In this document: positions 36,591 to 55,739 of the stretch, piece after piece
Layout: every line of letters starts with the position of its first letter
Position numbering within the stretch: position 1 is the stretch's first letter
Origin: Fibrobacterales bacterium
GTDB taxonomy: Bacteria; Fibrobacterota; Fibrobacteria; Fibrobacterales; JAOPTW01
DNA: 64,000 nucleotides
Assembly: GCA_051532055.1 (NCBI GenBank)
Contig: JAOPTX010000016.1
Span: 1 to 64,000 of the forward strand
Direction: 5' to 3'
Notes under the pieces: model-generated
Databases searched by the model: none
Seen by the model: the letters and a program-made list of their open reading frames with translations, nothing else
Told to the model about the DNA's origin: nothing
Made by a program: the position numbers and the translations under genes

Positions 36591-37364
36591 ATGAGTATTG
36601 CAATTATCACCGGTGCATCATCAGGTATTGGCGCATCATTTGCAAAGAAACTCGATTCCGTAGGACTCAGTGAAATTTGGATTACTGCTCGCCGTATTGA
36701 CCGTCTAGAAGCTCTTGCTGAAGAACTCTCTACACCTGTTCGAGTTATTGGAGCAGATTTAACGATCTCGAAAGGGCTCGGTACTCTTACCGGAATCATT
36801 ACCGAAGAAAAGCCCGACATCTCCTATCTTATAAACAATGCAGGTTTTGGTAAAGTAGGTTCTTTTACAGAAATCTCTCTTGAAGACACCCTTGGCATGA
36901 TAACCCTTCAAGTTTCCGCACTCACCGAAATCACTCATACAGCCCTCCCTTACATGAAGAAAGGAAGTACGATTCTTCTTGTTTCATCCCTTGCATCTTT
37001 TGTATCTATGCCAGGTTTTGCAACGTACTCTGCAGTAAAGGCTTATATAACCAATCTTGGTTATTCACTGTATCGAGAATTAAAGCCCAGAGGGATTCAT
37101 GTAACAACAATCTGTCCAGGACCCGTCAAAACAGAGTTTGGTGCGCGTGCTCAATTTACAGTAGTATCAAAAGGAACTGATGTTGTTGCAGAAGATATCA
37201 CCTCTCTCGCTCTTGCAGATGCACAGAGAAAACTCCCCTTCTCAATGTTTGGAGCCACACCCAAATTGACCAAGTGGGCCATCCGGATTCTTGGAAATCG
37301 CATTTCGAGCTTTATAATCTGGCACTATATGCAACGCGAAATGAGCAAACAAAATTTACGGTAA
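36591..37364 (+). CDS. Short-chain dehydrogenase/reductase
   Basis: ITGASSGIG, LINNAGFG, YSAVK, CPGPVKTEF. Confidence 0.93.
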   Translation: MSIAIITGASSGIGASFAKKLDSVGLSEIWITARRIDRLEALAEELSTPVRVIGADLTISKGLGTLTGIITEEKPDISYLINNAGFGKVGSFTEISLEDTLGMITLQVSALTEITHTALPYMKKGSTILLVSSLASFVSMPGFATYSAVKAYITNLGYSLYRELKPRGIHVTTICPGPVKTEFGARAQFTVVSKGTDVVAEDITSLALADAQRKLPFSMFGATPKLTKWAIRILGNRISSFIIWHYMQREMSKQNLR

Positions 37365-38354
37365 GAGAGATTCAACCCGCTCTTTAAGACTATTGGGCTC
37401 AACTATTTCACAGGCACCTGTGGCAACACGCCCCACCAGCCACCGTTCAAAATCGACAGTGATATACAGCTTCAATGCAATAGTTTTTTTGGATCCATCA
37501 CAGTCCGCAGCGGGGTCAAAATGAGCATCTTTCATATGACGATAAAACCACGACTCTTTACTTTTTAAAACAACGCGCTCCACGCTCTCTTCACTGTTTT
37601 CGTTACTCCACTGAGCAAACTTATACTTATAAAACTCTTGTATCTCTTTTTGATGTGTACTATCAAAATAGTGATCCGGTATTTTTCCGGATAACACTTG
37701 GATTATTCCTTTCATGCGATCAAGGCGAAGGGTGCGGAGAAGTGACTCATTCTTTTTACCATAACCCATCACATAGAGCTGTCCAATACGGAGTACAAGT
37801 TTTACGGGATAGAATTCAATCATACTCTCTTCATCGCGACTCGATGTGTATTTACCAATGCGAATAGCCTGCTGGTTATCAATAGCCTGCAAAATCTTAT
37901 CCATAGCAGGATTCATTTTAATGGAATCAGGGTTTACCGCAAAAGGACCATGACTAATGATCCAATGAGTATCTGACTGCTGTAGTTTTTGAGGTGAAGA
38001 ACGATTCTCTAAAAATGACCCAACATGATTGAGAAGATCTTGATACTGCGCCATTCCCGAGCTCGAGAGATCTTGAGTCATTTTTTTAAAAGCAATAATA
38101 GAATCATCATCAATCCAACTTTCGCGCGATTGAATATGAAAGGTGGATTCTCTTCCTATTTGATTGTCTTTTCGTACAAAATCTTGATTGTTGAGAGCTA
38201 TCTCTTTTAAATATCGCGCAAGAGTGCGATCATCGATGGGATCACCATACTCTGATTCAATCTGATGAAGTAACCTCGTTTTTGTCCATTCACGCTCTTT
38301 AAGGAGGGACTCAATAAGAGAAATGCGTTGATATTTTGAACTCTCTTTTTTCAT
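37356..38354 (-). CDS. HTH-WYL-WCX transcriptional regulator (PafC/YafY/DriD-like)
   Basis: N-terminal winged HTH (IDDRTLARYLKEI); WYL core FYPVKLVLRIGQLYVMGY...LRTLRLDRM; WCX tail FERWL...EIVEPNSLKERV. Confidence 0.88.
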   Translation of the reverse strand: MKKESSKYQRISLIESLLKEREWTKTRLLHQIESEYGDPIDDRTLARYLKEIALNNQDFVRKDNQIGRESTFHIQSRESWIDDDSIIAFKKMTQDLSSSGMAQYQDLLNHVGSFLENRSSPQKLQQSDTHWIISHGPFAVNPDSIKMNPAMDKILQAIDNQQAIRIGKYTSSRDEESMIEFYPVKLVLRIGQLYVMGYGKKNESLLRTLRLDRMKGIIQVLSGKIPDHYFDSTHQKEIQEFYKYKFAQWSNENSEESVERVVLKSKESWFYRHMKDAHFDPAADCDGSKKTIALKLYITVDFERWLVGRVATGACEIVEPNSLKERVESLLP

Positions 38355-38403
38355 GGGTTAGCCTTACTCAATAAACTGAAGTATAAAGTAAAGAGAAGTA
38401 ATA

Positions 38404-38418
38404 TGACAAAATTTGTCA
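38404..38418. promoter_or_regulatory. Palindromic TGACA-N5-TGTCA box 1 (candidate WYL operator)
   Basis: TGACAAAATTTGTCA, a 7-bp inverted repeat, 50 nt upstream of the WYL gene. It overlaps TTGTCA-N18-TATACT on the minus strand. Confidence 0.7.
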
Positions 38419-38580
38419 AACCTATCAATGTCCATACTCTACTATCGCCCTTTATGGACAATTTTAACCCTTTCCCATAGTAACACCCACCCAAGTAACA
38501 CTCTTTTATTCTGTATTTTTAGATATGCCGAAACGACAATTCCCTCGACCTCACTCGTAAATTAAGATATAATACTATAT

Positions 38581-38850
38581 ATGAGATTGAAACCATTAAA
38601 TGCGCAGACAGCAATCACCGATATGATAGAACAATCACAATCGGTATATGATAGACCTGTTTTATCAGAAGAGGACTACAAGACTAAAATGCGCGACCTA
38701 CTTCCTGGTACAGCCCAATCTCAACTTGAATCAGATGAGCTTCAGCATATATCTGATATGGTTGAACGATACGAGCAACTTTCGAAACAGTATCATGACA
38801 GCGACGAACGAGTCACCCTTAGAAAATTGATACAACGCAAATCGGAGTAA
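38581..38850 (+). CDS. Hypothetical 89-aa helical protein
   Basis: ATG 7 nt after TATAAT. Stop is 3 nt before the glpK start, and its 3' end carries glpK's GGAG SD. Confidence 0.6.
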   Translation: MRLKPLNAQTAITDMIEQSQSVYDRPVLSEEDYKTKMRDLLPGTAQSQLESDELQHISDMVERYEQLSKQYHDSDERVTLRKLIQRKSE

Positions 38851-38853
38851 CAC

Positions 38854-40347
38854 GTGGCCGGTTACATTATTGCACTTGATCAGGGAACAACCAGTTCACG
38901 AGCAGTTCTTTTTACTGACACATTAGACCTTGTCGCCATTTGCCAAGAAGAGTTCCCCCAATGTTTCCCTCATGATGGCTGGGTTGAACACGACCCTGAA
39001 CAGATCTGGCAGAGTCAACACAATGTATTACTCAAACTCATTACAGAAAACAATATCTCACCTTCTGAAATTATTACCATCGGCATTACAAATCAACGAG
39101 AAACTACTATTGTGTGGGACCGCACAACAGGTACCCCCATATATAACGCTATTGTCTGGCAAGATAGACGAACAGCCCCTCTCTGTGAAGAACTTAAACA
39201 ACAAGGATTCACCGCTACTATTCAGGAAAAAACAGGTCTGGTGATCGATGCCTATTTTTCGGCAACCAAGCTGAAATGGATTTTAGATACGGTGCCCGGA
39301 GCTCATGAAAAAGCATTGAAGGGAGACCTCCTTTTTGGCACTGTTGACAGTTGGCTCATATGGAAGTTAACAAATGGTGCACACCATGTAACTGACGCAT
39401 CGAATGCCTGCAGAACAATGCTCTTTAATATATCTGATATGTGTTGGGACACTGAACTTTGTAATACTCTCTCTATCCCTATGGGAATGCTCCCCGAAGT
39501 AAGAGACTCATCGGGCTCTTTTGGTGAGTGGTTTCTGGATGGGGTTGCTATTCCTCTATCTGGAGTGGCCGGCGATCAACAAGCCGCTACCTTTGGACAA
39601 CGCTGCTTTGAAGAGGGAATGGTTAAAAACACCTACGGCACTGGCTGTTTTATGGTAATGAATACGGGAGCTAAACGAGTAACGAGTACTCAAGGGCTCC
39701 TTACTACTATTGCGTGGAGTTTAAACGGCATACCTACTTACGCCCTTGAAGGCAGTGTCTTTATCGCTGGCGCTGCTATCCAATGGCTCCGTGATGGCTT
39801 AAAACTTTTTTCAAATGCTCAAGAATCAGAGATCCTCGCACACCATGCAAACAAAGATGATCAGGTTGTGGTCGTTCCTGCTTTTACCGGACTGGGTGCA
39901 CCGTACTGGGATATGTACGCCCGTGGCGCAATTTTTGGATTAACTCGTGATACCGGCATAGAAGAAATTACTCGGGCCACTCTAGAATCAATCGCATTCC
40001 AAAGTTATGATATTTTACAGTGTATGCAAAGAGATAGTGAAACAACAATTCCTGCCCTGACCGTCGATGGCGGAGCAACTGCTAATAATTTCCTCATGCA
40101 ATTTCAGGCTGATCTCTTGGGTATTCCCATTGAGCGCCCCCTAATTACTGAGTCTACTGCACTTGGTGTAGCCGCTCTTGCGGGACTGCATCATTCACTC
40201 TGGACAATGGATGCATTAAAGAACAAACACATTGAAAAAACGTTTTCTCCATCAATTGATACAAAGTATAGAGCGGACCTCATAAAAAAATGGCATAGTG
40301 CAATTCAACGAGTTCTTTCAGACCCTGATCAATCACATGGAATGTAG
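38854..40347 (+). CDS. glpK: Glycerol kinase
   Basis: ALDQGTTSSR, ITNQRET, IVWQDRRT, YFSATK, GDQQAA, KNTYGTGCF, YALEGS, GLGAPYWD. Confidence 0.98.
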   Translation: MAGYIIALDQGTTSSRAVLFTDTLDLVAICQEEFPQCFPHDGWVEHDPEQIWQSQHNVLLKLITENNISPSEIITIGITNQRETTIVWDRTTGTPIYNAIVWQDRRTAPLCEELKQQGFTATIQEKTGLVIDAYFSATKLKWILDTVPGAHEKALKGDLLFGTVDSWLIWKLTNGAHHVTDASNACRTMLFNISDMCWDTELCNTLSIPMGMLPEVRDSSGSFGEWFLDGVAIPLSGVAGDQQAATFGQRCFEEGMVKNTYGTGCFMVMNTGAKRVTSTQGLLTTIAWSLNGIPTYALEGSVFIAGAAIQWLRDGLKLFSNAQESEILAHHANKDDQVVVVPAFTGLGAPYWDMYARGAIFGLTRDTGIEEITRATLESIAFQSYDILQCMQRDSETTIPALTVDGGATANNFLMQFQADLLGIPIERPLITESTALGVAALAGLHHSLWTMDALKNKHIEKTFSPSIDTKYRADLIKKWHSAIQRVLSDPDQSHGM

Positions 40348-40351
40348 ATAT

Positions 40352-40378
40352 AAAAAAAGGCCCTCTCTATAAAGGACC
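40352..40378 (-). terminator. Intrinsic terminator
   Basis: Minus strand GGTCCTTT-ATAG-AGAGGGCC (with G-U pairs) followed by T7, just after the 83-aa gene. Confidence 0.7.
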
Positions 40379-40400
40379 ATAGCATTAAGAGCACTAAACG

Positions 40401-40652
40401 TTATCCGTCTATTTTCCCTTTAACATCATTCACGTCATCTTGACTGACTCCCATTTCATCCATTACTTCTTGGAGTGCACCTGGATTCATCATCAATTCG
40501 CCAACAATTTTTTGAATTGCTGAAGGGTCGATACCCATTTCAGCTATTTTTGACATTGCCCCAAGTGGGTTTTCTTTGACCGCTGAGACGAGCTCTTGCG
40601 CTTGCTCAGGCGTGATATTAAGTTCTTTAAATATTTCTGATAGTTTAGACAT
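40401..40652 (-). CDS. Small helical protein resembling DUF2999
   Basis: ENPLGAM...MNPGALQEVMDEMGV pattern recalled from DUF2999 proteins. AGAGG SD. Confidence 0.65.
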   Translation of the reverse strand: MSKLSEIFKELNITPEQAQELVSAVKENPLGAMSKIAEMGIDPSAIQKIVGELMMNPGALQEVMDEMGVSQDDVNDVKGKIDG

Positions 40653-40706
40653 AGAAGACCTCTTTTTTAATTAATAATAGCAAATGGAATGATGTTTTTC
40701 ATTCCA

Positions 40707-41054
40707 TTACTCAATGATATACAGCTCAACTTCATCCTCACCAACACCATTCACAACGTCATCAGTTTGATCATACTCATACAATAGATCAAAATCACTT
40801 TCCATATCTTCAAGCATTAATATCGCATAGCGCTCTTGCATAAGGTCAACTTGCTGTGACAGGGGGGCATACAACAACACACCAATAATCCCGAGAACCA
40901 TCACTGTTATTGAACTCATAGTTTTGATACTATAAAAAAGTATTTGCCGTTGTTTCTGTTCATGAATAACAGCAGTACTAAAGTGAAGTTCCTCTGGAGA
41001 AACCGATTTGAAAAGGTTACTCAGTGACGATTCACTATATTTCTTATCAGACAT
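40707..41054 (-). CDS. Putative anti-sigma factor (single TM)
   Basis: Overlaps the ECF sigma stop. One TM segment (ITVMVLGIIGVLLY) and an acidic C-terminus. Confidence 0.6.
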   Translation of the reverse strand: MSDKKYSESSLSNLFKSVSPEELHFSTAVIHEQKQRQILFYSIKTMSSITVMVLGIIGVLLYAPLSQQVDLMQERYAILMLEDMESDFDLLYEYDQTDDVVNGVGEDEVELYIIE

Positions 41055-41568
41055 ATTCTCCCCCTCTATTCAGTAACACTACCATTTTTTGTTTTGCCTC
41101 ATGAATCCTTGATTTAGCTGTGCCTTCTTTAATATTCAAAATGATCGCAATTTCATTATATTGAAAACCTTCTATCTCCTTCAAAATCAGCGGTTCACGA
41201 TATTTCCCTTCAAGTTTTTGTAAGGCACTATTAAGATGGGCGACTTCTGGGCGTACCGAGGCTATTGCAGGGGCATGCAGCGATTCTTCAAAGACTTCAA
41301 CAGGCTTGAGATGCTTACGTACATACTGTAAACTCACATTGCGCACCAGTCCAAATAGCCAAGTACTAAATGCAGCATTCTCCTTAAAGCGCATCAATGA
41401 TTTTTGTAAGGCAATAAAAGACTCTTGTACCACATCATCTACACACCCTTTGTTACCAATGGTGTACATGACCATCCGCCGAACACCATCAAGATATCGT
41501 TCAGCCAATTGATCAAAGGCCGGTTTAGAGCCAGCCTTAATTTGTTGTATCAACTCACTATCAGTCAC
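41047..41568 (-). CDS. ECF sigma-70 factor
   Basis: TDSELI..IKAG..PAFDQL, DDVVQESF, FSTWL, YREPLILKEIEGFQYNEIA, GTAKSRIHEAK. Confidence 0.94.
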   Translation of the reverse strand: MTDSELIQQIKAGSKPAFDQLAERYLDGVRRMVMYTIGNKGCVDDVVQESFIALQKSLMRFKENAAFSTWLFGLVRNVSLQYVRKHLKPVEVFEESLHAPAIASVRPEVAHLNSALQKLEGKYREPLILKEIEGFQYNEIAIILNIKEGTAKSRIHEAKQKMVVLLNRGGEYV

Positions 41569-41602
41569 ACAGTACCTACGTTAAAATGAAAGTCCAACGT
41601 CT

Positions 41603-42106
41603 CTATTTATCCCAACCCTTACCATACTTGCCTCTCTTACCTTTATCACTGAGGCGATGCATAATGTATGTATCCCACTGGTCTTTAGTTAGAAGCTCTT
41701 TAATTTTAGCATCTTTTTCAAACTGTTTAATTTGAATCTGCGCCCATATATCACCACGTTTGTTGCAATTTTCAGTTATAAGGCCCATATCAAATGTATC
41801 ATTGAGTATCATTTTTTTAAGGACAATTTTATGTTCTTCCGATTCTAACTTCAGAAGGGCAACTTGTTTATGATGCGCACTCAAAATCACTTTCACTTGC
41901 TCTTGGGTTGACTTATCAAGCCCCAGCTTTTTAAAGAGTCTATTAAATTTAGGCCCTTTAGCCATTCGCTTGCACTCTTTATCTCCTTTTGGACACTCAT
42001 ATTTTTTACCACCGCCATCACCATACCTTTTACCATGGCCATATCCTAGGCCTTGAGCCACAACCATAGTTGCTGCAAGCATGAGTATCATTAGTAACTG
42101 TTTCAT
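41603..42106 (-). CDS. Spy/CpxP-like periplasmic protein
   Basis: Signal peptide from the ATG at 42106, Gly-rich linker, LGLDKSTQEQV and LLTKDQ (LTxxQ-type) motifs. Confidence 0.72.
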   Translation of the reverse strand: MKQLLMILMLAATMVVAQGLGYGHGKRYGDGGGKKYECPKGDKECKRMAKGPKFNRLFKKLGLDKSTQEQVKVILSAHHKQVALLKLESEEHKIVLKKMILNDTFDMGLITENCNKRGDIWAQIQIKQFEKDAKIKELLTKDQWDTYIMHRLSDKGKRGKYGKGWDK

Positions 42107-42217
42107 TGTATCACCTCTTTTATTAATCATTCTTTTTAACTATAAGTGTAATGGACGACCACTTTCGTTCGATAAAAATGAAAGTTATTTCACATTGTCT
42201 TATTTATTGGAATAATG

Positions 42218-42733
42218 CTATTCTGAGGTCAATAGGCGAATAGTATCTTCATATTCTGGAAATTCAGACAGCAAGTCATCTCGCTTTGCCAGCTCAAAAT
42301 CCGCAAAATCAAACCCTGGCGCAACAGTACATCCAACAAGAGCATAGTCATTTGCCTCTTCGAGAGATGCCCCAAACCAACAGCCGGCCTTTACCATTCC
42401 TTGAAACTGTTCTCCAGCATCAGGGTCAGAGCCAATTTTAAGATGAAAGAGCACTCCCATGGGGTCAATGACATGAACAATCAATGGAGTGCCGGTATAA
42501 AAATGCCATATTTCATCAGACTGAATACGATGAAAGTGAGATACTTGCGTACCTTCTAAAAGAAAATAGATAGCAGTGGAAGCTGACCGCACACCTGAAA
42601 ATCGTTCTGGGGGATTTTCTAGTTGATCGCCCGACCGATAGCTTTCAGCAAAATAGCCTCCTTCAGGGTGTTGAGTCATCTGCAATGATTCAATCCAATA
42701 GTCAGCGCTCTTTTGTTCTGTCACCTTTTTCAT
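42218..42733 (-). CDS. Cupin_5 (DUF985) family protein
   Basis: HPEGGYF, STAIYFLL, SHFHRIQSDEIWHFY, GCTVAPGFDFADFE. Confidence 0.93.
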   Translation of the reverse strand: MKKVTEQKSADYWIESLQMTQHPEGGYFAESYRSGDQLENPPERFSGVRSASTAIYFLLEGTQVSHFHRIQSDEIWHFYTGTPLIVHVIDPMGVLFHLKIGSDPDAGEQFQGMVKAGCWFGASLEEANDYALVGCTVAPGFDFADFELAKRDDLLSEFPEYEDTIRLLTSE

Positions 42734-44145
42734 TTTTCTACAACTCCGTTAAGGTAGTGTTCTAACTCATCCAATAATTCTTTTTGAGCATAGTCAAGAT
42801 TCTCATTTGATCTGAGTTCACCGATATCCCTATGAGCATCAATCAAAGTATACCGCTTATTCCCTCGAAAATCAATACTGTCAGCAGTACTATCTAATGC
42901 CTGCTTTAAGTAGGTAGTACAAGCGGTAAGAGATGGCCCCCTTAACGCATCTTTAAAATTTCTATAGAGAATTCGTTCAGCAAGTATATTTATGTGCGGT
43001 TGAGAAAACCCACCTACCAGTTCAATTTTCCGCGCAAGATCTCCGTTACGATATACATAGGAAAGTTCGTCATCCCCCCGCGGCACAAACCCTTTTGTAT
43101 AAAGAGCCGCATCAGGGTCAACCTGTTCAACATCATCGTACCGATACTCTTTATGGTAGGTAATAATCTTTTCCAAGAGAGTATCATGCTCTTTGAGCCA
43201 GGCGATGTTTTCCGTGACGAGTGCTGCTCTTTCATCACTCCAGTGACTTTTATATCGATCAAGTACCGGAAGCAGTATATCTGATCCATCTTTTTTACGG
43301 ATAACCCATGTCTCTTCTTCAATGGATGCTTCAGTCAATTCTGCAAAGGGAGTCCGGTCGAGAATAAGCCAGATTGTTTGGTTGGTGTAACTCTGGGATA
43401 GCCCAAGACTCAGTACAACATGTTGATACCCTTGTGCGGCCCCTGCCTTCACTTGTATCGCAATGGCCATAGTATGATATTTGGGGAGTAGCTCAGGTAC
43501 TTTTGTAAGTTTTTTTAGATATTCAGCCTCGACCTGTTTTTTAAATCCATTGGTAAGATAACGCCACATCTCACCCTCTTTAGAAAACCGCTGTGCCAGT
43601 GCAACTGTTGCTTCAACATCAACCATAGCATTATGAGCCTGCCCTGTTGCAAGATTATTTTCACTGCTTAAATATTCAAGTTTGAGGGTTGGCTTTTCCG
43701 CGACCGTTGGCCATTTGATTACTGAAGGCTTATAAAGGAAGTAGACCGCTGCAATAGGGAGTAAATCAAGCCTGCCACAATCATTATAAAATTGATGTTG
43801 ATACGGGCTCAGTAGATTACGATAAAACATAAAGCGTAAAAACTCGTCATCAAAACCCATTGTGTTATAGCCCACACTGATCGTTCCCGCTACATTCATG
43901 AGCTCATGAATGGCACAGGCAGCATCAAACTCACTCATACCACTTTTCAGGGCAGTCAGTGACACTCGATGAGTAATAGTTGCGTAGGGCGAAGGGATCA
44001 CATCGGGGCGCAGGGCTATTTTAAATTCATGCCGCTCGATTTCATGTAAATTCTGATCTGTCCGAATCGCAGCAAATTGCACTACCTGATCAAAGCATTT
44101 GTTGAGGCCTGTAGTCTCTAAATCGTAAAAAAGAAAGGTTTTCAT
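42730..44145 (-). CDS. sbcB: Exodeoxyribonuclease I (DEDDh 3'-5' ssDNA exonuclease)
   Basis: FLFYDLETTG, QFAAIRTD, GYNTMGFDDEFLRFMFYRNL, LKLEYLS, AHNAMVDV. Confidence 0.92.
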   Translation of the reverse strand: MKTFLFYDLETTGLNKCFDQVVQFAAIRTDQNLHEIERHEFKIALRPDVIPSPYATITHRVSLTALKSGMSEFDAACAIHELMNVAGTISVGYNTMGFDDEFLRFMFYRNLLSPYQHQFYNDCGRLDLLPIAAVYFLYKPSVIKWPTVAEKPTLKLEYLSSENNLATGQAHNAMVDVEATVALAQRFSKEGEMWRYLTNGFKKQVEAEYLKKLTKVPELLPKYHTMAIAIQVKAGAAQGYQHVVLSLGLSQSYTNQTIWLILDRTPFAELTEASIEEETWVIRKKDGSDILLPVLDRYKSHWSDERAALVTENIAWLKEHDTLLEKIITYHKEYRYDDVEQVDPDAALYTKGFVPRGDDELSYVYRNGDLARKIELVGGFSQPHINILAERILYRNFKDALRGPSLTACTTYLKQALDSTADSIDFRGNKRYTLIDAHRDIGELRSNENLDYAQKELLDELEHYLNGVVEK

Positions 44146-44333
44146 AATGAGAAATATACAATTTGTGAATGAGAACTTTGTGAAATGTACTTTTTAAGGC
44201 TTTACTAGGACCCTTTTGAATAAGTGACATAGTTGACAGAAGTTACGTATCCCCCCAATCTCTCCCATGATTTTTTCTAAGCAGCCTAAATTATTATTAC
44301 ATTTGGAATTAAGCACTTAGACCAGATACCACC

Positions 44334-45100: not shown

Positions 45101-45133
45101 TGACAAATACTGTCACCGCTCCCATTCTATATT
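45101..45133 (+). promoter_or_regulatory. TGACA-N5-TGTCA box 2 plus -10 element, upstream of ssb
   Basis: TGACAAATACTGTCA (45101-45115), then 12 nt, then TATATT (45128-45133). Confidence 0.7.
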
Positions 45134-45161: not shown

Positions 45162-45551
45162 ATGGCATGTTTAAACAAAGTTACCCTCATTGGCAATTTG
45201 GGTGCAGATCCGGAAATCAAAACAACTGTGCAAGGTGTGAAACTCGCACGATTCAATGTAGCAGTTACCGAAAAATATAAAGATCAACAAAATCAGAAAC
45301 AAGAGAAGACCCAATGGTTTACCGTCATTCTCTGGAGACGTCTTGCTGAGATAGCAGAACAGTTTCTTAAAAAAGGTTCTATGGTCTATATTGAAGGCAA
45401 ACTGGAAAATTCGAGCTGGGATGATGAAAAAACTGGTGAGAAAAAATATAAGACTGAAATTCATGGACTTAACATGCAGATGCTTAGTTCATCAAAACAT
45501 GTTTCTGAATATGCTGTTGGTCATTCAAACATGAGTACTATGGCATATTAA
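45162..45551 (+). CDS. ssb: Single-stranded DNA-binding protein (short, no acidic tip)
   Basis: LNKVTLIGNLGADPE, TQWF, LAEIAEQFLKKGSMVYIEGKL, KYKTEI. GGGAG SD. Confidence 0.95.
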   Translation: MACLNKVTLIGNLGADPEIKTTVQGVKLARFNVAVTEKYKDQQNQKQEKTQWFTVILWRRLAEIAEQFLKKGSMVYIEGKLENSSWDDEKTGEKKYKTEIHGLNMQMLSSSKHVSEYAVGHSNMSTMAY

Positions 45552-46325: not shown

Positions 46326-48596
46326 TTACTTTCTTAAAATTCGCTCTGAGACCCCTGATCTACGCATTATTGACTGCCCAACTGCCGAAATAACACTTTC
46401 AGCACCCCCTACAATACCCGCGAAATACTTCGCACGAGTGACTGCAGTATAGAGAATTTCTTTAGTCATGACACGATTCATCTCTTTCGGGAGAGCAATC
46501 AACGCATATTCATACTCAGAACCTTGAGATTTATGAACCGTTATGGCAAAAGCAGTATCAAATTGAGCGATATCTGAGACGGGATATATCCCAACAGAAT
46601 CATTTTCCGGAATTGCAATAAAGTAGTTGTCACCAGATGCAATCACCACTCCACAGTCACCATTAAAAACCCCATGGGTATAGTCGTTTTGGGTTATCAT
46701 AACCTGAAGCCCTGGATAGACTCCCTCACGTACTTCGTACTGAAGTTCACCCTGCATATACTCAAAGAGAATTTGATTTATTATGGCAGTCCCAACAGGT
46801 CCACTTCGAGTGACTCCCAAAATTTGAGATTGATTCATATAGGCGAAGAGTTCTGTAAAAAGTTCCTTCACTGTTGCATCTTCTACAATTTTGGTCCGTA
46901 TCTCAGATGGTGTCAAGCCACTCTTCATTTTTTTTGTTAGGGCTGCAATTATCCCGCAATACGAATGGGTACGAGTCCATGCATTATGGTATACCGATGT
47001 TTCTGCATAAGGTTGATCAACCAAATGAAACCGACACCAATCAATAAGGAGTTCTTTGAATGGGTCACGCTCTTTGGTTCGTTCACCTGGTTCAAGGAGT
47101 AGAGTGCCCTGAGTATTACACCGTTTTGCCCCTTCATCATCTATCACAACCATGGGCCATTCAGGGTATCCATGTACATGAGGTAATTCCGCTACTACTC
47201 TCTCTGCGTCTTGCTTATTAATTAAGGCACTCAAAGAAAGAATTGAAGCTTCTGAACGATGACTTTTACTGAGTACCACCATTGAATCTTTTAATAGATG
47301 ATGAGCGCCGAGTTCAAGGTTTTTACATGAGGCATCGTCCATCTCGGTTCCAAGAATATTTTGAAGCGCCTTGACTGATTCGGATGTCAGACTCGGGTTA
47401 CCCTCTGGAATAGTTTTTCCAAATAGGTCACTCAGAACTGCCCCTGCCTGTACCGAAGGAAGCTGATTGTGATCACCTAAAAGAATAATACGGGTATCAG
47501 ACTGGAGCGCCTCAATAATATTCAGGAAGAGTGCAGCGTCTACCATAGAAACTTCATCAATAATTACAATTTTCGCCGGGTGCTTATTATCACGACCATA
47601 AGTAAAGCGATTACGCCCTGGGTTATATTTTAAAAATCGGTGGATCGTTTGGGAGTCAATAGAATCGAGCAGCGAGTCCTTCATATCTGATTCACCTTGA
47701 GGAATGAGCGCAACACTTTGTTCAACCGATTCCGCCATTCGCGCTGCAGCTCTACCCGTTGGAGCCACCATACTGATCTGATTTGAGTGTAAGTGAGGAT
47801 TGAGCCGCACTAATACCCGAAGAAGGGCAACAACCGTACTTGTTTTACCGGTACCAGGCCCACCTGAAATAACAGAGAACTGTTTCTGTGCCGCCATCAA
47901 AACCGCCGCTTGCTGACGCAGATGAAAATGCATGGGACGAGAACCCAGCACCATAGGTTTTTCTATAAAGACATCGTTATAGGCCAATTCCAAATCAGGA
48001 GAAATAGTTAAAGGAGCCGTATCAATGATCGAATCGAGCCAGAGAGAGAGACGTTTTTCTACCCCAAAGTATTTCCCCGTATAAAACCCATAAGTCGCAT
48101 CATACACAAACAGTGAGCTACCACTAGGGCCTTCGCAAAAAACAGGACCGAGCATATCCAGTCTTGATACCACATGATTCATTGCACTGGAAAATTGATG
48201 TTTGAGTGCAATCGAATCAAATAGAGAGACGAGTTGGTCTGCCAGAACGACATCTTGAGTTACAATTTTCTTACGTTCAATATACCCTTCAATCACCTCA
48301 ATAATTTCTTGGTCTGTTTCACCAGGTAAATAATAGAGATGTCCCAACCCAGTAGAAACAATAATTAATAGTTGGGCAAGGGTACTATGCGAGTCACGGA
48401 CATTATTATTTAATAACCTATCTGAAAGTGTAGTCAATGAAAGATGAGCACCATCGATACAACCCGATTCTACAAGAAGATACACTGCAACAAAAAAAAT
48501 ATCTTCTTTCTCACTTGGCCTAATACCACCTTTGAGAGCCGCCTCACTCGGACCAATAGTTTCAATCCAGCACCGGGTCTGTAGTAATGCATCCAT
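46326..48596 (-). CDS. recD: Exodeoxyribonuclease V subunit alpha (5'-3' helicase)
   Basis: ISGGPGTGKT, APTGRAAARM, TIHRFL, DEVSMVD, LLGDHNQLPSV, SHRS, FNGDCG, AITVHKSQGSEY, LYTAVTRA. Confidence 0.95.
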   Translation of the reverse strand: MDALLQTRCWIETIGPSEAALKGGIRPSEKEDIFFVAVYLLVESGCIDGAHLSLTTLSDRLLNNNVRDSHSTLAQLLIIVSTGLGHLYYLPGETDQEIIEVIEGYIERKKIVTQDVVLADQLVSLFDSIALKHQFSSAMNHVVSRLDMLGPVFCEGPSGSSLFVYDATYGFYTGKYFGVEKRLSLWLDSIIDTAPLTISPDLELAYNDVFIEKPMVLGSRPMHFHLRQQAAVLMAAQKQFSVISGGPGTGKTSTVVALLRVLVRLNPHLHSNQISMVAPTGRAAARMAESVEQSVALIPQGESDMKDSLLDSIDSQTIHRFLKYNPGRNRFTYGRDNKHPAKIVIIDEVSMVDAALFLNIIEALQSDTRIILLGDHNQLPSVQAGAVLSDLFGKTIPEGNPSLTSESVKALQNILGTEMDDASCKNLELGAHHLLKDSMVVLSKSHRSEASILSLSALINKQDAERVVAELPHVHGYPEWPMVVIDDEGAKRCNTQGTLLLEPGERTKERDPFKELLIDWCRFHLVDQPYAETSVYHNAWTRTHSYCGIIAALTKKMKSGLTPSEIRTKIVEDATVKELFTELFAYMNQSQILGVTRSGPVGTAIINQILFEYMQGELQYEVREGVYPGLQVMITQNDYTHGVFNGDCGVVIASGDNYFIAIPENDSVGIYPVSDIAQFDTAFAITVHKSQGSEYEYALIALPKEMNRVMTKEILYTAVTRAKYFAGIVGGAESVISAVGQSIMRRSGVSERILRK

Positions 48597-51500
48597 TATT
48601 TATCTCCACTTATTTCAGGGTGCGCATCACGAATCATTTTTTCAATATCTATAGTATAGTGTTCTTCAATTATTGTTGCAGACTCTGGGCACATACATAC
48701 ATATCCATCATTGGATCCGGGCTGCATGCCTCGTATATAGAGATAGTAGACGCCACCAAAATGAGTATCAAAAGAGTAGCCAGGTAGGGCTGCCTGTAAC
48801 CAACGATGGAGAGCAAGCGCATAAACCTGCAATTGTATATCATAATGATCTCGAATCATACTCTCTTCAATTGCCTGGGCATCATAGCCATTTTCTAAAT
48901 AATTTGATTTCCAATCGAGAATGTAATAACGTCCCTCAAAACGGAAGAGCAGATCAATAAATCCTTTTACAAAATGAGCATCTTCATTCTTTGTAAAAAG
49001 TTGCACGCTCTCTGAATGGAGATAACTAAACTGAAACTCCATTTCAGCTTTAAGATCTTTTTCGGGAATTGTTGCCAGGGAAAAGGTATTGAACGGGTTG
49101 CGCGCATCGATCATCGGGGCAGTTAAACAGTTATGTATCAATCGTCCAATTGCCCGATAATGCTGAGATCCAATACCATATTTTGTACAATAGAATTCAA
49201 TTACATCCGCTGTCTTTTTATTCTTAAGTAGTGCAACCCCTGCATCTTCTCCAGACAATGCACCCACTTCGGCAAAGGAGATATGTTCAAAAATATCGTG
49301 TAAGCAATTACCCGGCTCAGCTCCTCGGGGAATATCTTGAATATATTTATCAAACTGTGCCGGCCGTGGAGCCGTGGGCACAACACCGATAGAGGTAATT
49401 ACCCGATTATTTTCATTAACAGTATGAGAAAGATGCGAGTACGACTCCATTATAATTTTTTTCTTAGAAAAACCAGAATAGTTAGGGATAACACCCACCA
49501 ACTCTTTTACCATTTCTTCAGAAGGAGGTTCAACCTGTGTCGCTTTATACTCTTCACAATCAGGATTTATAGTGACATAGCCTGAAAGCGTGTCATTGAG
49601 TGCGCCTGTAATAGCGGAAGTAAGTACCCGCCTCATCCCTACTTTTTGATTCACTTTTTCGGAACCCATAAGCGGCATATAGAGAAAGTATTTAGCCCGA
49701 GTAAGTGCTACATAGAGCAACCTGGTATATTCTGCAAGCCTCTTTTCTAAGGGTTCTTTTTGAGTAAAATCAAAGTGCCGGTGATCACTCTCTTTAGTGA
49801 CCACATAGTTATTCATTTGTAATTCACCAAAACCACCGAGAAAAACCACATTAAACTCAAGGCCCTTAGATGCGTGCATAGTCAATATCTGTACTGCTGC
49901 ATCATCACGTTCTTTCCGATAGAGTTCACCATCATCTTCACGTTCAAGACGCTTCGCCCGCCAATTTTTAAGGAGCGCGACTTGATCCTCAAGAGACAAC
50001 TTTTTGCGATATGCCTCAGTTTGTAGGTCCTGCATTACTTGTTTATACGCATCAAGCTCTCGAAACCTATTAGGGCCAATTGTTATAGTACGTAACAGCT
50101 CTGTATCGTGTAAAAAAGAGTGGTAGAGCTCCCCCCATCTCCGTCGAGTAACCAGGCTGTGCCATCTATCATAGAGCACTCGTCGAGCACTGTCATTTTG
50201 GTGCTCGCCCAGCCCCCTCTCACCTTCTCCAAAAAAAGGCGTAAAGAGCGCTTTGGTTGCTGTATCAGGTGCAGCATCTGAGATACTCTCAAGAAGGTAG
50301 AGTATATGAGCCGATTCTTTTGACTGATAGACACCCTGCTGCTTATAATAGCTATAGGGTATTCCCCGCTCTTGGAGAAGTGATTCAAAATGAGTTACAT
50401 CCCCTCGTTTCTCAACAAGGATTGCCATATCACTCCACTCTGCTCCTTGTACACGAAGATCAAGAAGCGCATCAACCATCCAAGGATAATACTCTTCTCG
50501 ATTTCCACCGAGACCCTCGCTTAACAATTCTTTCACCACAAATGGAGTGTATGTATCATTCACCTTAAAACGTTCGTAAAAGGTTCCCGGTCTTTGGGCG
50601 GGCGAGGCATCAGGATAATGAACAGGGCTATATGTAATAGCACCCTCTGCAGTATCATAACCAAAAAATGATGGTCGAGAAAAGAGGGCATTAAAGGCCT
50701 CAAGTATTCGCTTGCTCGAACGATAGTTGTCAGAGAGCGTGTGCATAACTTCATGACCAGAGAATGAAAGCATCTCTTCTTTGGCTCTATAATAGGTTTC
50801 AATATCAGCACCCCGAAAAGAGTAAATTGCTTGTTTTGGGTCACCAATAAGAAATAAACGTGTATAGGTCGTTCTTAAAAAGAGAGTTTTAAATATATCC
50901 CATTGCGCGTCATCAGTATCTTGAAATTCATCAACCAATACCACATGATATTGACCACGAATCCTCTGTGCAATATCTGGATTCGTTGTCACAAGTGTGC
51001 GCACTCGTTGTATCATATCATTAAAAGTAAAGAGCGACTGATTCTCTTTGGTCTCGCAGACTTTCTCGATTAACCGACTCAATAGCGGGATAATTCGAGC
51101 AGCCTCTACCTCTGTGTGGTAATTGACTGCTGCCTCACACAATGAAACAACAGCCTTTACCACTACACTATAACTCTTACCATTGCAGTAAGGAAAAATT
51201 GTTTCATCATCAATATCAAACTGGGGATCATCACATTTTGATCCGAGCCATCCGGGTTCACTTTTTTGTCCCTTAAATTGTCTAATAAAACTATTCAGTG
51301 GTTCGGGACTAGTATCACTTTCACATTGTTCAATAACACCGCCCAATGCACCCCAAAACATTTCGGTCCACTCATCAAACTTAGGGAGTTTTTTCCCTTT
51401 ATTGAAAGCCCCTTTATGGGCGACAGCGACTTCTCTCTGTCGATCACCAAAAGCACTTAAGGTCGTATTGAAATCTATTCCCACTTGTTGTTTGAATAAG

Positions 51501-52087
51501 CCTATGCTCTCAGTAAATGGCTTCAGGGCTTCCCCAACCACCGTATCACTCTTACTCTTCTGTTCGGCAATAGCAATAAATACAGACTTTAAGAGATCAT
51601 CAACATTTAAGTACGGACTCGATTTTACCAGACGTACCAACTCCGGATACTCTTTTGACCATTCACCTTTGAATAGTTCGATACACTCCTGTACAATAAG
51701 TTCACGCTCATCAGTGAGTTTCTCTTGAAATGAACGCCCTGATTCAAATGGAATTTTTTGCAATACCTTTTTACACCACCCATGAATGGTATACACTTCT
51801 GCCGTTTCAAAATCACGAATAGCTTGCATGAGTCGAGCACACTCATCATGCCCTAATGCCTCACCATGAAGTTCACGGGAATGGAGTGTTTCAAGTAGTC
51901 CTTCTCGAATACGCTCACGCATCTCACCTGCAGCTTTTTCGGTGAACGTTACCAGCAGGATTTCATTAATACATGTCTCACTTGAGCGAAGTATCTCAAG
52001 AACCATCTGTTGAATAGTATAGGTTTTACCCGTTCCAGCCGATGCCTCAATCCACCCATTGGGTCGTGTTGCTATTTCTTTAAACAT
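48596..52087 (-). CDS. recB: Exodeoxyribonuclease V subunit beta (helicase-nuclease)
   Basis: IEASAGTGKT, VTFTEKAA, VDEFQDTD, IGDPKQAIYSFRGAD, NYRS, TMHASKGLEF, LYVALTRA; nuclease motif GFIDLLF...ILDWKS and QLQVY. Confidence 0.96.
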   Translation of the reverse strand: MFKEIATRPNGWIEASAGTGKTYTIQQMVLEILRSSETCINEILLVTFTEKAAGEMRERIREGLLETLHSRELHGEALGHDECARLMQAIRDFETAEVYTIHGWCKKVLQKIPFESGRSFQEKLTDERELIVQECIELFKGEWSKEYPELVRLVKSSPYLNVDDLLKSVFIAIAEQKSKSDTVVGEALKPFTESIGLFKQQVGIDFNTTLSAFGDRQREVAVAHKGAFNKGKKLPKFDEWTEMFWGALGGVIEQCESDTSPEPLNSFIRQFKGQKSEPGWLGSKCDDPQFDIDDETIFPYCNGKSYSVVVKAVVSLCEAAVNYHTEVEAARIIPLLSRLIEKVCETKENQSLFTFNDMIQRVRTLVTTNPDIAQRIRGQYHVVLVDEFQDTDDAQWDIFKTLFLRTTYTRLFLIGDPKQAIYSFRGADIETYYRAKEEMLSFSGHEVMHTLSDNYRSSKRILEAFNALFSRPSFFGYDTAEGAITYSPVHYPDASPAQRPGTFYERFKVNDTYTPFVVKELLSEGLGGNREEYYPWMVDALLDLRVQGAEWSDMAILVEKRGDVTHFESLLQERGIPYSYYKQQGVYQSKESAHILYLLESISDAAPDTATKALFTPFFGEGERGLGEHQNDSARRVLYDRWHSLVTRRRWGELYHSFLHDTELLRTITIGPNRFRELDAYKQVMQDLQTEAYRKKLSLEDQVALLKNWRAKRLEREDDGELYRKERDDAAVQILTMHASKGLEFNVVFLGGFGELQMNNYVVTKESDHRHFDFTQKEPLEKRLAEYTRLLYVALTRAKYFLYMPLMGSEKVNQKVGMRRVLTSAITGALNDTLSGYVTINPDCEEYKATQVEPPSEEMVKELVGVIPNYSGFSKKKIIMESYSHLSHTVNENNRVITSIGVVPTAPRPAQFDKYIQDIPRGAEPGNCLHDIFEHISFAEVGALSGEDAGVALLKNKKTADVIEFYCTKYGIGSQHYRAIGRLIHNCLTAPMIDARNPFNTFSLATIPEKDLKAEMEFQFSYLHSESVQLFTKNEDAHFVKGFIDLLFRFEGRYYILDWKSNYLENGYDAQAIEESMIRDHYDIQLQVYALALHRWLQAALPGYSFDTHFGGVYYLYIRGMQPGSNDGYVCMCPESATIIEEHYTIDIEKMIRDAHPEISGDK

Positions 52088-55000
52088 ACAACCCCTAGTA
52101 TCGCGCCAAACCTATGTAAGTACACTTCAAGAGAGTCTGGTCGATATACTTTAAAGCGATCAAATCCTAAATAATCGGGGACATAACTCGCTGAACAGTG
52201 ACTTTCCCAAGCGGTCTCTATGGTAGTTACTACCTCTTGATAGAGTTCTTGATTAATAATCGGTTTTTGGTCCTCTTCTGCAAAAGCTAATAATGATTCT
52301 TTTATGGGATCACACTTCTCAAGTCCTAACAACTCAAAACTTTCCGCTATCGCACCATCTGATGATAAGCTCCCCGTATAAAGAGATTCAAAGGGAAGAG
52401 AATAAAGGTTTTCGGTTAATACCATTTCTGCAAGAAGCTCTTTGAGGCGTCTATCCGAGCCACTCAATGAGAGAGGTATTTTAAATTTCCTAATCGTACT
52501 CTTTTCGAGGCTACTCCAACACCATACCTCCACTCCATTCTGTACCTGTTCTTTGTATGAATCAGTTTGAGCAAGAATAAGGAGACGCACATAGGCTATG
52601 AGTAGATGCTTGGGTTGAAAACTTTTTGTAAAATTATTGGGGACCAACATTATGGGGAGTTGGCCAGTAGATGAAACAAAGAGATGACCAGTGTTTCCTG
52701 TCACTTCTATTATATGATGTTCACCCGGAAGAGCAATTGGAATAGTTACCGATTGAGGCATTACGTATTGATATTCTTCTAAGTGCGTTTGCATACTATG
52801 AATACGCTCAATTTCAATTGATGCACCTTCGATAGTTTTTTCGAGGGCAATCTCACCCAGTACTGAAGTCGGTAAATTACCTAAGCGACAATTCCGGTCC
52901 CACTCGTCTTTAATAATACTCTGTACTCGATGCTCCCCAATTTCTTTTTCTAGACCAAACCACTCCGTCAGTATTGTTTCAACAACCGCTCCTTTAATAG
53001 CACCCGCTTGGAGCATTGCAACTGTCAATGGTTCTTCAGACTCAATTGAGTGATCTTCATCATCACCCCAAAGCCCGTACTTCTGTTGTAGCCGGTAGAC
53101 TAATGGGTTTTCTAAAAACCGTTTTAAATGCCCCTCAGTTACTACAACATCGTCATTCAGACTCACCGGTATGGAAACATATTCACTCGTGTACGTTTCT
53201 GTCTCTTGCTGTAGCAAACTCGAAAGGTGTGCAAAGTGAGATGAGTAACTCGGAACGGTATACGTATCACATTGAGGCAGTTCAATAAGTGGTTGAGTAT
53301 GCCCTCCTGTAAATAGACGACTATCACTATTAAGTAATGGAATATGACATCCCTTCACCTGCGTAGTCAGAAGATAGTCATTGAAAAACTCTTTCAGTTC
53401 GGACACTAGCGAGCTTTGTTGAAGTGGCTCATCTTTTTTAAGGTCCATAGAGAGATAACTCAATACCAGTTGTTCTTTAACTGAGGTTATAACTTCTAAA
53501 AAGAGATACCGATCAGTCTCAATAGGGGAAAAATCTCCTATTTCACGACGACACCCTCTGAGATCTAACGATCCATAACTCATACGCGAAGGAAAAACCC
53601 CTTCATTGAGTCCTAAGAGATACATACTTCTATAGGGAACCGGTGGCTTTGGACTCAATGAAGTAACCGTTACGCCACCAGTGAGATAACTTCCGCCAAA
53701 TCCTGGGAGGTCAATGAGTAATCCCAAAATAAATTCTTGGAGGAGTACCCAAGGAATAGTGCTTGACTTCCTCTGAAGAAGGGTCACCCGTGTCAATTCT
53801 TCATACAGTTGATCTCGTAACTTTTTCTCCGACTCGAGTTCTTCGGGTACACTGCACCACGTTGTAAAAAAGAGCGGTAAAAAGGTGAGCCACTCAGAAA
53901 CTGATTTTTGTTTTTTAAGTGCTGAAAGATCGCGATAGAGCAATTCAATAGTTTCAACAAAAAGAGAGAGCAGTGCACTATTTTGCGAATCAATATCACT
54001 ATAGGCCTCAAGAGCATCACCAACAACACTCCCTACTTCCGTAACTTGGCCAAGAAGCAGTCGATCCAAGGCCATTCTCCAGGTGTGAATATACTCTTCT
54101 GCATAGCCAGCACTCTGCCGATGGCTTTGATCAAAATGACGATAAATATTTAGACGTTCCGCCCACCCCACAAAGGTTGTGACCATCTCGGGCGTGATAC
54201 CTCGAGCCGCTTGTACACAGGGGTTCTCCAAAAATGAAAACAGTTCTTTACGCGTAAAATGACTCCCCGAGAGAGCCATCAAATCACGCACCGCCTGGCT
54301 ATAGACACTAGTACTTGAGGTGCCATCGATGAGGCTATAAGGAATGCGCTCATGCCCTTCACTATTACGTGCCTCAAAGACCTGTTGTACTACGGGTGCA
54401 TACCGTTCAAGGTCTGTTACAAATACTGCGATATCATGAAAACGCATCGTAGGATTGAGTCTGAGGGTATGGACAATACTATCATAGAGTGTCTCAACCT
54501 CTCGTTTAATTTCAGGTGCACTCCAAAACTGAACTGATGCATCTTGTTTTACAGGGGTGATATCTGTTGTTCTCTTGAGAAGTGAATGCTGAAGAGTTCC
54601 AAGGATAGTTTTTGTATCATGAGGTTCACTATAGCGATCAGCAAAAGCATAGTCTGTCGCCTGACACCAAAGCTGTATCCCTTCACGTCCTGGCCTTCCC
54701 CACTCTGCAAGAAGAGGATGCATCTGACCCTGTTCTTCTGGGAGAACCTCATCCATAAGGGCGTCTTCATCTTTGGTCAGTACATTCCGTTCTTCATCAC
54801 TCAGCAGATTCCAGGTGCCAGTGTGTTGAATACGCCGCTTCTCCGAAACAAGATCTTCCCAAAACTCTGCACAAGGATTAAGGGCATAGACATTAAAAGT
54901 AACCCCCAACTCCGAGAGGGTAAAAATAAGGCTTCGATGAAACAGTGATATTTGAGACATTGCAAATATATGCCATGTTTCACCCTTACACGGTTCAGCA

Positions 55001-55701
55001 TCAAAACTTTCTTCAGCTTTAAATACCTGCCGTGCATACATAGGGAGTGAGCAGTACCAGTCACTATTCGCTTCGGCGTAGCGACCGAGTACACCTCCTT
55101 CACCAAAGAGTTCTCGGTAAAGCGCTTTCTGCCAGAGCTCCACCTGCCCAAACCAAGTCTCTTCGTCAGGGCGAACGCCCTTTCCAATTTTTTTAGAAAA
55201 AAGAAGAAGATCTACATCAAGCCACGACTCAATCACTCCTTCACATGAGGGACTTTTGATGCGCTTAAATTCATAATCAATAAAGACCGTAGCTATCTGT
55301 GTTGCAAGCTGCATCAATTTCCGGAAATAGAGACCCTCACTACTCTCTGTATCTCCTAAATATTTTTTAAGAGGCTCATACACCGGCAGAGCCATAAGCT
55401 CAGTATCCATCAAGCAATGAGCGACAAAGAGTGAAAGTGATGCTTTATTGAGGGGTTCAGCAGAGCCTTCCTCGTAAGTATCTATTTCTTGAAGTAATCG
55501 CCACAAGTTTTTTTCTAATCGTCCTACCTGCAAGTTTGCCACAATACCATCGCGCTGGGCCATATGGTATTGCAACCAAGTCCCCATCTGGCCACCCACA
55601 ATTATAGGGTCGGGATTAAAGATATCATCGGGCTGATAATTATCGCGCAACTTCTCAAAGAGCTGCATAGTATCGTTACTAAAAAAGAGGTTTATAGCCA
55701 T
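52072..55701 (-). CDS. recC: Exodeoxyribonuclease V subunit gamma
   Basis: FFSND, WQKALY, LNPCAEFWED, HPLLAEWGRPG, REVETLYD, HTWRMALDRLLLG, LGLNEGVFP, DRYLFLE. Confidence 0.93.
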   Translation of the reverse strand: MAINLFFSNDTMQLFEKLRDNYQPDDIFNPDPIIVGGQMGTWLQYHMAQRDGIVANLQVGRLEKNLWRLLQEIDTYEEGSAEPLNKASLSLFVAHCLMDTELMALPVYEPLKKYLGDTESSEGLYFRKLMQLATQIATVFIDYEFKRIKSPSCEGVIESWLDVDLLLFSKKIGKGVRPDEETWFGQVELWQKALYRELFGEGGVLGRYAEANSDWYCSLPMYARQVFKAEESFDAEPCKGETWHIFAMSQISLFHRSLIFTLSELGVTFNVYALNPCAEFWEDLVSEKRRIQHTGTWNLLSDEERNVLTKDEDALMDEVLPEEQGQMHPLLAEWGRPGREGIQLWCQATDYAFADRYSEPHDTKTILGTLQHSLLKRTTDITPVKQDASVQFWSAPEIKREVETLYDSIVHTLRLNPTMRFHDIAVFVTDLERYAPVVQQVFEARNSEGHERIPYSLIDGTSSTSVYSQAVRDLMALSGSHFTRKELFSFLENPCVQAARGITPEMVTTFVGWAERLNIYRHFDQSHRQSAGYAEEYIHTWRMALDRLLLGQVTEVGSVVGDALEAYSDIDSQNSALLSLFVETIELLYRDLSALKKQKSVSEWLTFLPLFFTTWCSVPEELESEKKLRDQLYEELTRVTLLQRKSSTIPWVLLQEFILGLLIDLPGFGGSYLTGGVTVTSLSPKPPVPYRSMYLLGLNEGVFPSRMSYGSLDLRGCRREIGDFSPIETDRYLFLEVITSVKEQLVLSYLSMDLKKDEPLQQSSLVSELKEFFNDYLLTTQVKGCHIPLLNSDSRLFTGGHTQPLIELPQCDTYTVPSYSSHFAHLSSLLQQETETYTSEYVSIPVSLNDDVVVTEGHLKRFLENPLVYRLQQKYGLWGDDEDHSIESEEPLTVAMLQAGAIKGAVVETILTEWFGLEKEIGEHRVQSIIKDEWDRNCRLGNLPTSVLGEIALEKTIEGASIEIERIHSMQTHLEEYQYVMPQSVTIPIALPGEHHIIEVTGNTGHLFVSSTGQLPIMLVPNNFTKSFQPKHLLIAYVRLLILAQTDSYKEQVQNGVEVWCWSSLEKSTIRKFKIPLSLSGSDRRLKELLAEMVLTENLYSLPFESLYTGSLSSDGAIAESFELLGLEKCDPIKESLLAFAEEDQKPIINQELYQEVVTTIETAWESHCSASYVPDYLGFDRFKVYRPDSLEVYLHRFGAILGVVCLKK

Positions 55702-55707
55702 GGTTGA

Positions 55708-55739
55708 AATATAAGTATTTTACCAGACAATAATTGTCA
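55708..55739 (-). promoter_or_regulatory. TGACA-N5-TGTCT box 3 plus -10 element, upstream of recCBD
   Basis: Minus strand TGACAATTATTGTCT (55739-55725), 11 nt, TATATT (55713-55708), 6 nt, then the ATG of recC. Confidence 0.65.

Follow-up and report, generated by a model that had tools for sequence, protein, structure and literature searches.

Gene organisation and shared boxes of the window

The stretch analysed here, called the window throughout, comprises 64,000 nt (positions 1 to 64,000 of contig JAOPTX010000016.1 of a Fibrobacterales bacterium), and the box coordinates and strands given below refer to the whole of it. It encodes a regulator with a WYL domain, ssb and a recCBD operon, each preceded by a palindromic box of the type TGACA-N5-TGTCA. 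The features concerned are:

37356..38354, minus strand: DriD-like regulator of 332 aa with winged helix-turn-helix (wHTH), WYL and WCX domains (PF13280; helix R43-T-L-A46-R47)
38380..38385, minus strand: likely -10 (TATACT) of the WYL gene, assigned by a consensus scan
38404..38418, no strand assigned: box before the WYL gene, a perfect palindrome and probable autoregulatory site
45101..45115, plus strand: box before ssb, GTC to -10 13 nt, rank 2 in the held-out scan described below
45128..45133, plus strand: -10 hexamer TATATT of ssb, 12 nt after the 15-mer box
45162..45551, plus strand: ssb (PF00436), a predicted target at genus level
46326..48596, minus strand: recD (TIGR01447, above cut-off)
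48596..52087, minus strand: recB (TIGR00609 as best match, E 1e-163, below the family cut-off)
52072..55701, minus strand: recC, first gene of recCBD (PF04257, PF17946)
55708..55713, minus strand: -10 hexamer TATATT of recC, 11 nt after the 15-mer box
55725..55739, minus strand: box before recC with one mismatch, GTC to -10 12 nt

A first-pass annotation of this DNA had read these boxes as a candidate WYL-controlled regulon for DNA-break repair. The three boxes were found where it had placed them, the recC one with one mismatch, and the positions of both TATATT hexamers were verified. The identities of the WYL, ssb and recCBD genes also held (PF13280, SSB and RecC/RecB/RecD family matches). 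The ATG of recC stands 6 nt after its -10, and the recC transcript is probably leaderless. An ATG close behind the -10, as seen at recC and at many targets in relatives, supports the -10 assignment through the leaderless transcripts that it would imply. The promoter of the WYL gene differs in geometry (TTGTCA-18 nt-TATACT by consensus scan), and therefore its box overlaps the likely -35 (TTGTCA). In G004, a genome of the same genus, this box was kept on the side facing the WYL gene and the other side had diverged, and the ssb box was kept with changes confined to spacer positions.

Occurrence of the box and its promoter arrangement in this genome

The palindrome alone was not rare. The one-mismatch form was not enriched in the window (4 matches against 2.96 expected, with 29 of 100 shuffles reaching 4), the fourth match being at 13879. 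In the whole genome of 5.17 Mb, the perfect N5 palindrome occurred 6 times, as compared with 0-9 times for spacers N0-N11. The earlier chance argument, a rough estimate of about 0.1 perfect matches per 64 kb, therefore has to be corrected, and most of the intergenic one-mismatch palindromes lacking the -10 spacing precede unrelated genes. Because the palindrome alone is not enriched, the case for the box rests on its position and its conservation.

The full arrangement, GWC-N7-GTC followed after 12-13 nt by TANNNT, was also found upstream of recA, rmuC and sbcDC. Of these, the recA site is 138 nt ahead of its gene and falls within the 3' end of cinA. All five sites with a -10 (ssb, recC, recA, rmuC and sbcDC) were kept in G004, and none of these five targets showed a -35 matching above 3 of 6 positions. 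The location of the recA box within the coding end of cinA in this genus (L021; G000:C37:20264-20296) is an apparent relocation; in 23 other genomes of the order the corresponding box stands at the cinA/pncC promoter.

To avoid circularity, a scoring model was built solely from the cinA/pncC boxes of 23 other genomes and applied to the DNA upstream of 3,983 open reading frames (ORFs), which had been called crudely. The top ranks were taken by a divergent pair of unknown genes on contig C44 (ranks 1 and 7), ssb (2), the WYL gene (3), recA (4), rmuC (5), recC (6) and sbcD (8), repair genes thus making up 5 of the top 8. Scores of at least 20 bits were reached by 7 of 3,949 upstream regions, by none on backwards reading and by 1-3 with six other spacings. 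When the discovery genes were left out, 3 repair genes were among the remaining top 5 (P about 1e-4 to 5e-4, assuming that 100-150 genes count as repair). Below rank 8 the annotated genes were not repair genes. The enrichment at repair genes that the first-pass annotation had named as possible support stood for recA, and not for radA, which was outside the top 40, or for uvrA, which carries a LexA-type box; the ruv and uvrB/C genes were not located and fall outside the comparison. The C44 pair (151 and 120 aa; L374:2442-3420, G000:C44:7938-8922) shares one top-scoring box, its 151-aa side is kept in G004, and both are candidate damage-response genes.

The regulator belongs to a small clade of DriD-like WYL proteins

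Pfam alone detected only the WYL domain (PF13280) in the window protein. A profile of 33 orthologues matched DriD best among solved structures (E 1.8e-10, positions 5-321), followed by PafBC (1.3e-6). The predicted structure (predicted local distance difference test 84.7, predicted template modelling score 0.55) has an N-terminal wHTH, a helical region, the WYL domain and a C-terminal domain, and Foldseek returned DriD first (3.7e-13), then PafBC, then BrxR and CapW. Model and profile together give the architecture wHTH, helical linker, WYL and WCX in a single protein of about 330 aa. The WYL gene of the window is single and its neighbours are unrelated; this, together with the palindromic box, leads us to infer a homodimer.

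R43 and R47 were invariant in 33 of 33 orthologue rows and align with the RTAER helix of DriD (R37, R41). In DriD, R37 and R41 read two guanines per half-site and E40 reads the outer C (PMC10853764). The position equivalent to E40 holds A, F, Y or M in the order of this genome and K in 15 of 16 rows of a second order. The sites differ in parallel: the outer pair was T..A in 17 of 21 cinA-locus sites of the first order, and in the second order the right outer base was C in 14 of 14 sites and the left one G in 7 of 14. This residue-base pattern fits covariation between protein and DNA.

In the phylogenetic tree the window protein fell in a 99/95 clade with its orthologues, and YafY-like and island paralogues stood outside it on long branches. 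Among 1.84 billion representatives, 46 matched the profile at E <=1e-30 and 12,088 at 0.001, placing the orthologues, as judged from these scores, as a small clade within a large family. The genome has two other WYL genes. One on C42 encodes an intact YafY-like paralogue with helix R-T-V-Y-R (L024; G000:C42:46904-48468); several GTGCAC repeats lie upstream of it, and the 156-aa gene that follows it has a TGACA-N6-TGTCA box 11 nt before TATGAT. The other (L025; G000:C1:63100-64200) is a broken YafY-like copy with stops and frameshifts.

As regards the settings of the orthologues elsewhere, in the largest family (L032:166-1419 and many f4 loci) the gene usually follows one of about 415 aa whose product has cysteine motifs near its N-terminus and a BON domain, and in the second order it is often behind a gene that by eye resembles glutamyl-tRNA ligase.

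The promoter element co-occurs with the regulator in two orders

The WYL protein gave one match in 130 of 151 genomes of the same order and none in the 14 of genus g11; in the second order it was found in 24 of 39 genomes, a tally that includes G237, an unpublished genome used for no other result here, and in none of the 12 of genus g17. A profile search of 50 genomes gave 0 of 7 for g17 and one weak partial match among 9 of g11; G002, G006 and G079 were counted as WYL-bearing, their homologues having been detected by this search.

When 1.5 kb of DNA ahead of recA was scanned, 24 of 30 same-order genomes showed the element, among them 22 of the 23 with the WYL protein. It was absent from all 5 of g11, where cinA is not upstream, and present in G119 and G005 (78% complete each) with no WYL match. 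In the 300 nt directly before recA it was found in 1 of 30 genomes; it came to light only once the scan extended to the cinA/pncC promoter. The second-order search covered 30 genomes, 2 of them with no cinA match, and the element stood at the start of cinA in 12 of 14 WYL-bearing genomes versus 1 of 14 others (G244, 78% complete) and in 0 of 11 of g17. Of 51 WYL-bearing genomes, the present one among them, 18 scored at least 15 bits upstream of recC; so did 1 of 27 lacking the protein (G129, 71% complete) and none of 20 that belong to other classes. Genus g20 has a weaker palindrome at recC, whose distance to TATTAT is 23 nt and so longer by one helical turn.

When a strict form of the pattern was counted over 62 genomes against a backwards control, it gave 192 versus 36 in 31 WYL-bearing genomes, 36 versus 22 in 22 lacking the protein and 32 versus 37 in 9 genomes of other classes, 16 of these 32 being in G153. 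In G153, G154 and G155, which belong to other classes and have more distant WYL homologues, the element lies directly before recA. It also precedes IS91-type transposase genes in G153 and G155 (L438, L445, L471), which suggests that transposition of these elements may be damage-induced.

The distance from GTC to the -10 was 12-13 nt in 35 of 70 boxes, with none at 9, 10 or 14, and the ATG followed the -10 by 5-7 nt, the leaderless type of spacing, in 13 of 14 second-order cinA sites. In g17 the box has gone from cinA while the -10 often remains. These observations bear on whether the WYL protein could bind the box as a repressor that ssDNA (single-stranded DNA) releases, in the manner of CapW and BrxR. 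Both are among the fold matches, and the box covers the -35 region, overlapping a plausible -35 at the WYL gene itself. The other targets, however, offer no -35 that could be blocked (3 of 6 positions at best), the spacing is fixed as activators need, DriD and PafBC outrank CapW and BrxR by fold, and g17 has lost the box with the -10 often kept; repression is thus highly improbable.

Conservation was uneven between targets. Of 30 ssb loci in the order, only one, from the same genus, carried the box together with its -10, and none of 6 loci in five other-order genomes did so. The box before the WYL gene recurred in 1 of 46 orthologue loci read, again the same-genus one. At rmuC the palindrome was present at 4 of 8 loci, and sbcD was located in 1 of 5 other-order genomes. 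The expectation of conservation in relatives was hence borne out for the recC and cinA-recA boxes, over two orders, while the ssb box and the auto-box are of genus level. For the break-repair regulon as first proposed, the DriD-like palindrome, the fixed distance to TANNNT and recC stood, and ssb has to be narrowed to the genus. Comparative sequence data nevertheless indicate a regulon that is real, well conserved and larger than the three boxes of the window.

Regulon content in relatives and possible other readers of the box

In two closed genomes the pattern far exceeded the backwards control (37 versus 6 in G039 and 28 versus 3 in G029). The 45 downstream proteins scanned (7 of the 37 G039 sites had no locus) included the products of radA, recQ, cinA and recC as well as Cas9, HsdM, a C5 methylase, an SNF2 helicase, RhuM, Fic, AbiH, SocA and MqsR; 18 of the 45 had no Pfam match. 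G220 and G217 add radC, rmuC, an integrase and DUF488. G039 and G029 also contain clusters of CGACA-N5-TGTCG sites beside extra WYL, AAA, Fic and PLD genes (L330-L333, L353, L361-L362), which are likely defence islands with DriD-identical operators. In G085, G112 and G120 of genus g11, clustered GACACCCACTGTCG-type sites were seen though the profile found no WYL gene.

The box could accordingly be a code shared by several WYL paralogues, YafY-like and island, of which the window protein would be just one reader, or not the principal one, at the repair promoters. This would accommodate the island WYL genes that adjoin sites of the same spacing in G029 and G039, the N5 boxes at glyoxalase genes of G198 and G217, the intact YafY-like paralogue with its R-T-V-Y-R helix, and the sites of G085 and G112, where no orthologue was found. 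We consider it unlikely, because the YafY-like paralogue is paired with a neighbour of its own that carries an N6 box, the third WYL gene is no longer intact, the perfect N5 box stands at the window protein's own gene, and this protein falls in a clade of single-copy genes that occur together with the cinA and recC boxes.

The element could also be read by a factor other than a WYL protein, or it could be a promoter type peculiar to this lineage, TTGACA plus a long spacer, that a sigma factor recognises. Its left half is often TTGACA, which matches the -35 hexamer perfectly, the box occurs without a WYL match in a few incomplete genomes, and the co-occurrence screen covered WYL genes. Nevertheless, the halves vary between GAC and GTC and their outer bases change symmetrically (T..A, G..C and C..G; 27 of 30 complementary in G039), a variation of both halves that fits a dimer. 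TTGACA would be separated from the -10 by 21-22 nt, LexA uses a different box, and the core equals those of DriD and DdaA. We therefore give this explanation very little weight.

LexA has a different box and mostly different targets

A lexA gene, for which the first-pass annotation had recommended a check, is present. A box of the type TGC[AT]C-N4-G[AT]GCA, presumably similar to the published LexA box of Fibrobacter, gave 19 upstream matches in this genome. They include lexA, recA, uvrA, a DnaE-type polymerase gene, dinB, the SRAP gene, dprA and the gene for a type II topoisomerase B subunit, and also several unrelated genes. While recA carries both LexA-type and WYL-type boxes, uvrA, the dnaE-type gene, dinB and SRAP have the LexA-type box and not GWC-N7-GWC, and lexA itself was outside the top 40 of the GWC-N7-GWC scan. 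LexA of Fibrobacter has been characterised (PMC3091678). The LexA SOS regulon was considered as owner of the WYL-type box and rejected, the box common to lexA and recA being unlike GWC-N7-GWC.

Other genes of the window

Within the window, a LexA-type box lies 103 nt upstream of a uroporphyrinogen decarboxylase gene (16089-17114, minus strand). Divergent from the WYL gene is an 89-aa ORF (38581-38850, plus strand) whose start is conserved in G004 and for which Pfam and NCBIfam gave no match; the box lies 163 nt upstream of it, and the DNA between is not conserved. Between the WYL gene and ssb there is an exonuclease I-like gene (42730-44145, minus strand), upstream of which no box was found (best score 0.1 bits).

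Comparison with known WYL regulators

In the literature retrieved, damage responses activated by WYL proteins are documented for mycobacteria, Caulobacter and Moraxellaceae. DriD of Caulobacter binds ATACGAC-N7-GTCGTAT over the -35 position (PMC9186387, PMC10853764, PMC13004042), and in the promoter oligonucleotides of PMC13004042 the optimised -35 of its authors sits in the box spacer. By our own count, and on our reading of that source, the oligonucleotides with a 17-nt spacer put the -10 12 nt after GTC. Since they show the same distance, the geometry is probably DriD's own, and the idea that the promoters represent a new PafBC/DriD hybrid is probably wrong. The system shares with DriD the homodimer-type wHTH-WYL-WCX fold, the RxxxR recognition helix, the GWC-N7-GWC core with an AT-rich spacer, a site that covers the -35 position where the promoter has no -35, a box before the regulator gene itself, recA among the predicted targets and coexistence with LexA. 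It differs in identity (about 17%), in phylum, in the outer base (T or G, not C) and in the replacement of Glu40 by Ala, Phe, Tyr, Met or Lys. The predicted targets centre on recBCD, cinA-recA, sbcDC, rmuC and defence genes, and not on didA, bapE, recJ and dnaG as with DriD.

DdaA of Moraxellaceae binds CGWCA-N5-TGWCG about 50 bp before the start (PMC12392091, PMC13010146). Core and spacer are the same, and its regulon likewise combines repair genes such as recA and ssb with those of restriction-modification and CRISPR-Cas systems (PMC12392091). However, DdaA replaces SOS and includes uvrA, while here LexA is kept and uvrA carries a LexA-type box, and most of our sites are one helical turn closer than those of DdaA, the g20 recC spacing being 23 nt. 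The term "recB" is absent from the main text of PMC12392091.

PafBC reads tGTCgg(N10)tA(N3)T, with R46 and R50 of PafB reading the GTC guanines (PMC8635444), and as in the mycobacterial system GTC stands 12 nt before the -10. PafBC is a heterodimer acting on a non-palindromic half-site by sigma adaptation, in contrast to the single gene and full palindrome here. Membership in the PafBC group was rejected, as no PafB-PafC pair or fusion was found, the sites are palindromic, and the spacing alone is common. SiwR, CapW and BrxR resemble the present protein as WYL homodimers on promoter-near palindromes, SiwR needing the -26 region (PMC10693628), but they control neighbouring genes only, whereas the regulon here is dispersed. 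No description of a Fibrobacterota WYL regulon was found among the 15-30 best matches listed per search of full-text literature, a collection that takes in few of the subscription papers. The comparison places the system, by its sequence features, as a DriD/DdaA-type activator regulon in another phylum, the new points being the predicted control of recBCD, the split of labour with LexA and the putative specificity rule.

A proposed ssDNA-gated repair regulon

The box, its spacing, conservation and co-occurrence with the WYL gene, and the fold and recognition residues of the protein are read directly from sequence; binding, ssDNA sensing, activation and the RecBCD loop are proposed by analogy to DriD, DdaA and PafBC. 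We consider it likely that the window protein is a DriD-type, ssDNA-gated activator of a repair regulon. DNA breaks or phage infection would release ssDNA, which the WYL domains would bind, freeing the two wHTH domains, whose R43 and R47 would recognise the GWC half-sites. The dimer would then cover about -38 to -24 of promoters with a TANNNT -10 and no usable -35 and recruit the housekeeping RNA polymerase. In this genome recCBD, sbcDC, ssb, rmuC and recA would be switched on, and in relatives the targets would add cinA-recA, radA, recQ, radC, comM, restriction-modification, Cas9 and other defence or mobile genes. LexA would separately control uvrA, translesion polymerases and SRAP, with recA under both. 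A loop in which ssDNA made by RecBCD boosts recBCD expression is plausible.

Several observations weigh against this proposal. In this genome the palindrome plus -10 gave 12 matches versus 15 in the backwards control, and two of the top-ranked genes, the C44 pair, are not repair genes and have no Pfam match. The residue-base covariation follows clades, and other WYL paralogues have the same RxxxR helix. Among the relatives, no orthologue was found in G119, G005 and G244, which have the cinA box, or in G129, which has the recC box; G085 has 7 sites and G112 has 4, neither genome with a profile match; in G006, which has a WYL homologue, recA lacks the box; in G230 the matches are outnumbered by those of the control (2 versus 10); and 33 of 51 WYL-bearing genomes score below 15 bits at recC. 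Moreover, the genomes are kin and not independent, so that the losses amount to few events.

More tentatively, GWC-N7-GWC, 12-13 nt and TANNNT may form an old promoter code of WYL activators that crosses phyla, a proposal which, taken jointly with the parts linked to it, we hold to be possible but rather doubtful. In it, the readers would be DriD, PafBC, this clade and the YafY-like and island paralogues; the residue beside the second arginine would pick the outer base (Glu for C, Lys for G, hydrophobic for T); and Fibrobacterota would have, next to LexA, a second global damage response that serves the processing of breaks and defence against phages. This response would be strong enough for recA to have regained a box in the coding end of cinA in this genus, with incoming defence and mobile genes plugging in.

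If the proposed activation is true, recBCD would be a damage-regulated operon in this group, and labour would be divided between LexA, for excision repair and error-prone polymerases, and the WYL protein, for break resection and defence. The scan pattern together with the one-residue specificity rule could predict WYL regulons elsewhere, and WYL-activated responses would then be a general companion to SOS instead of a handful of special cases.

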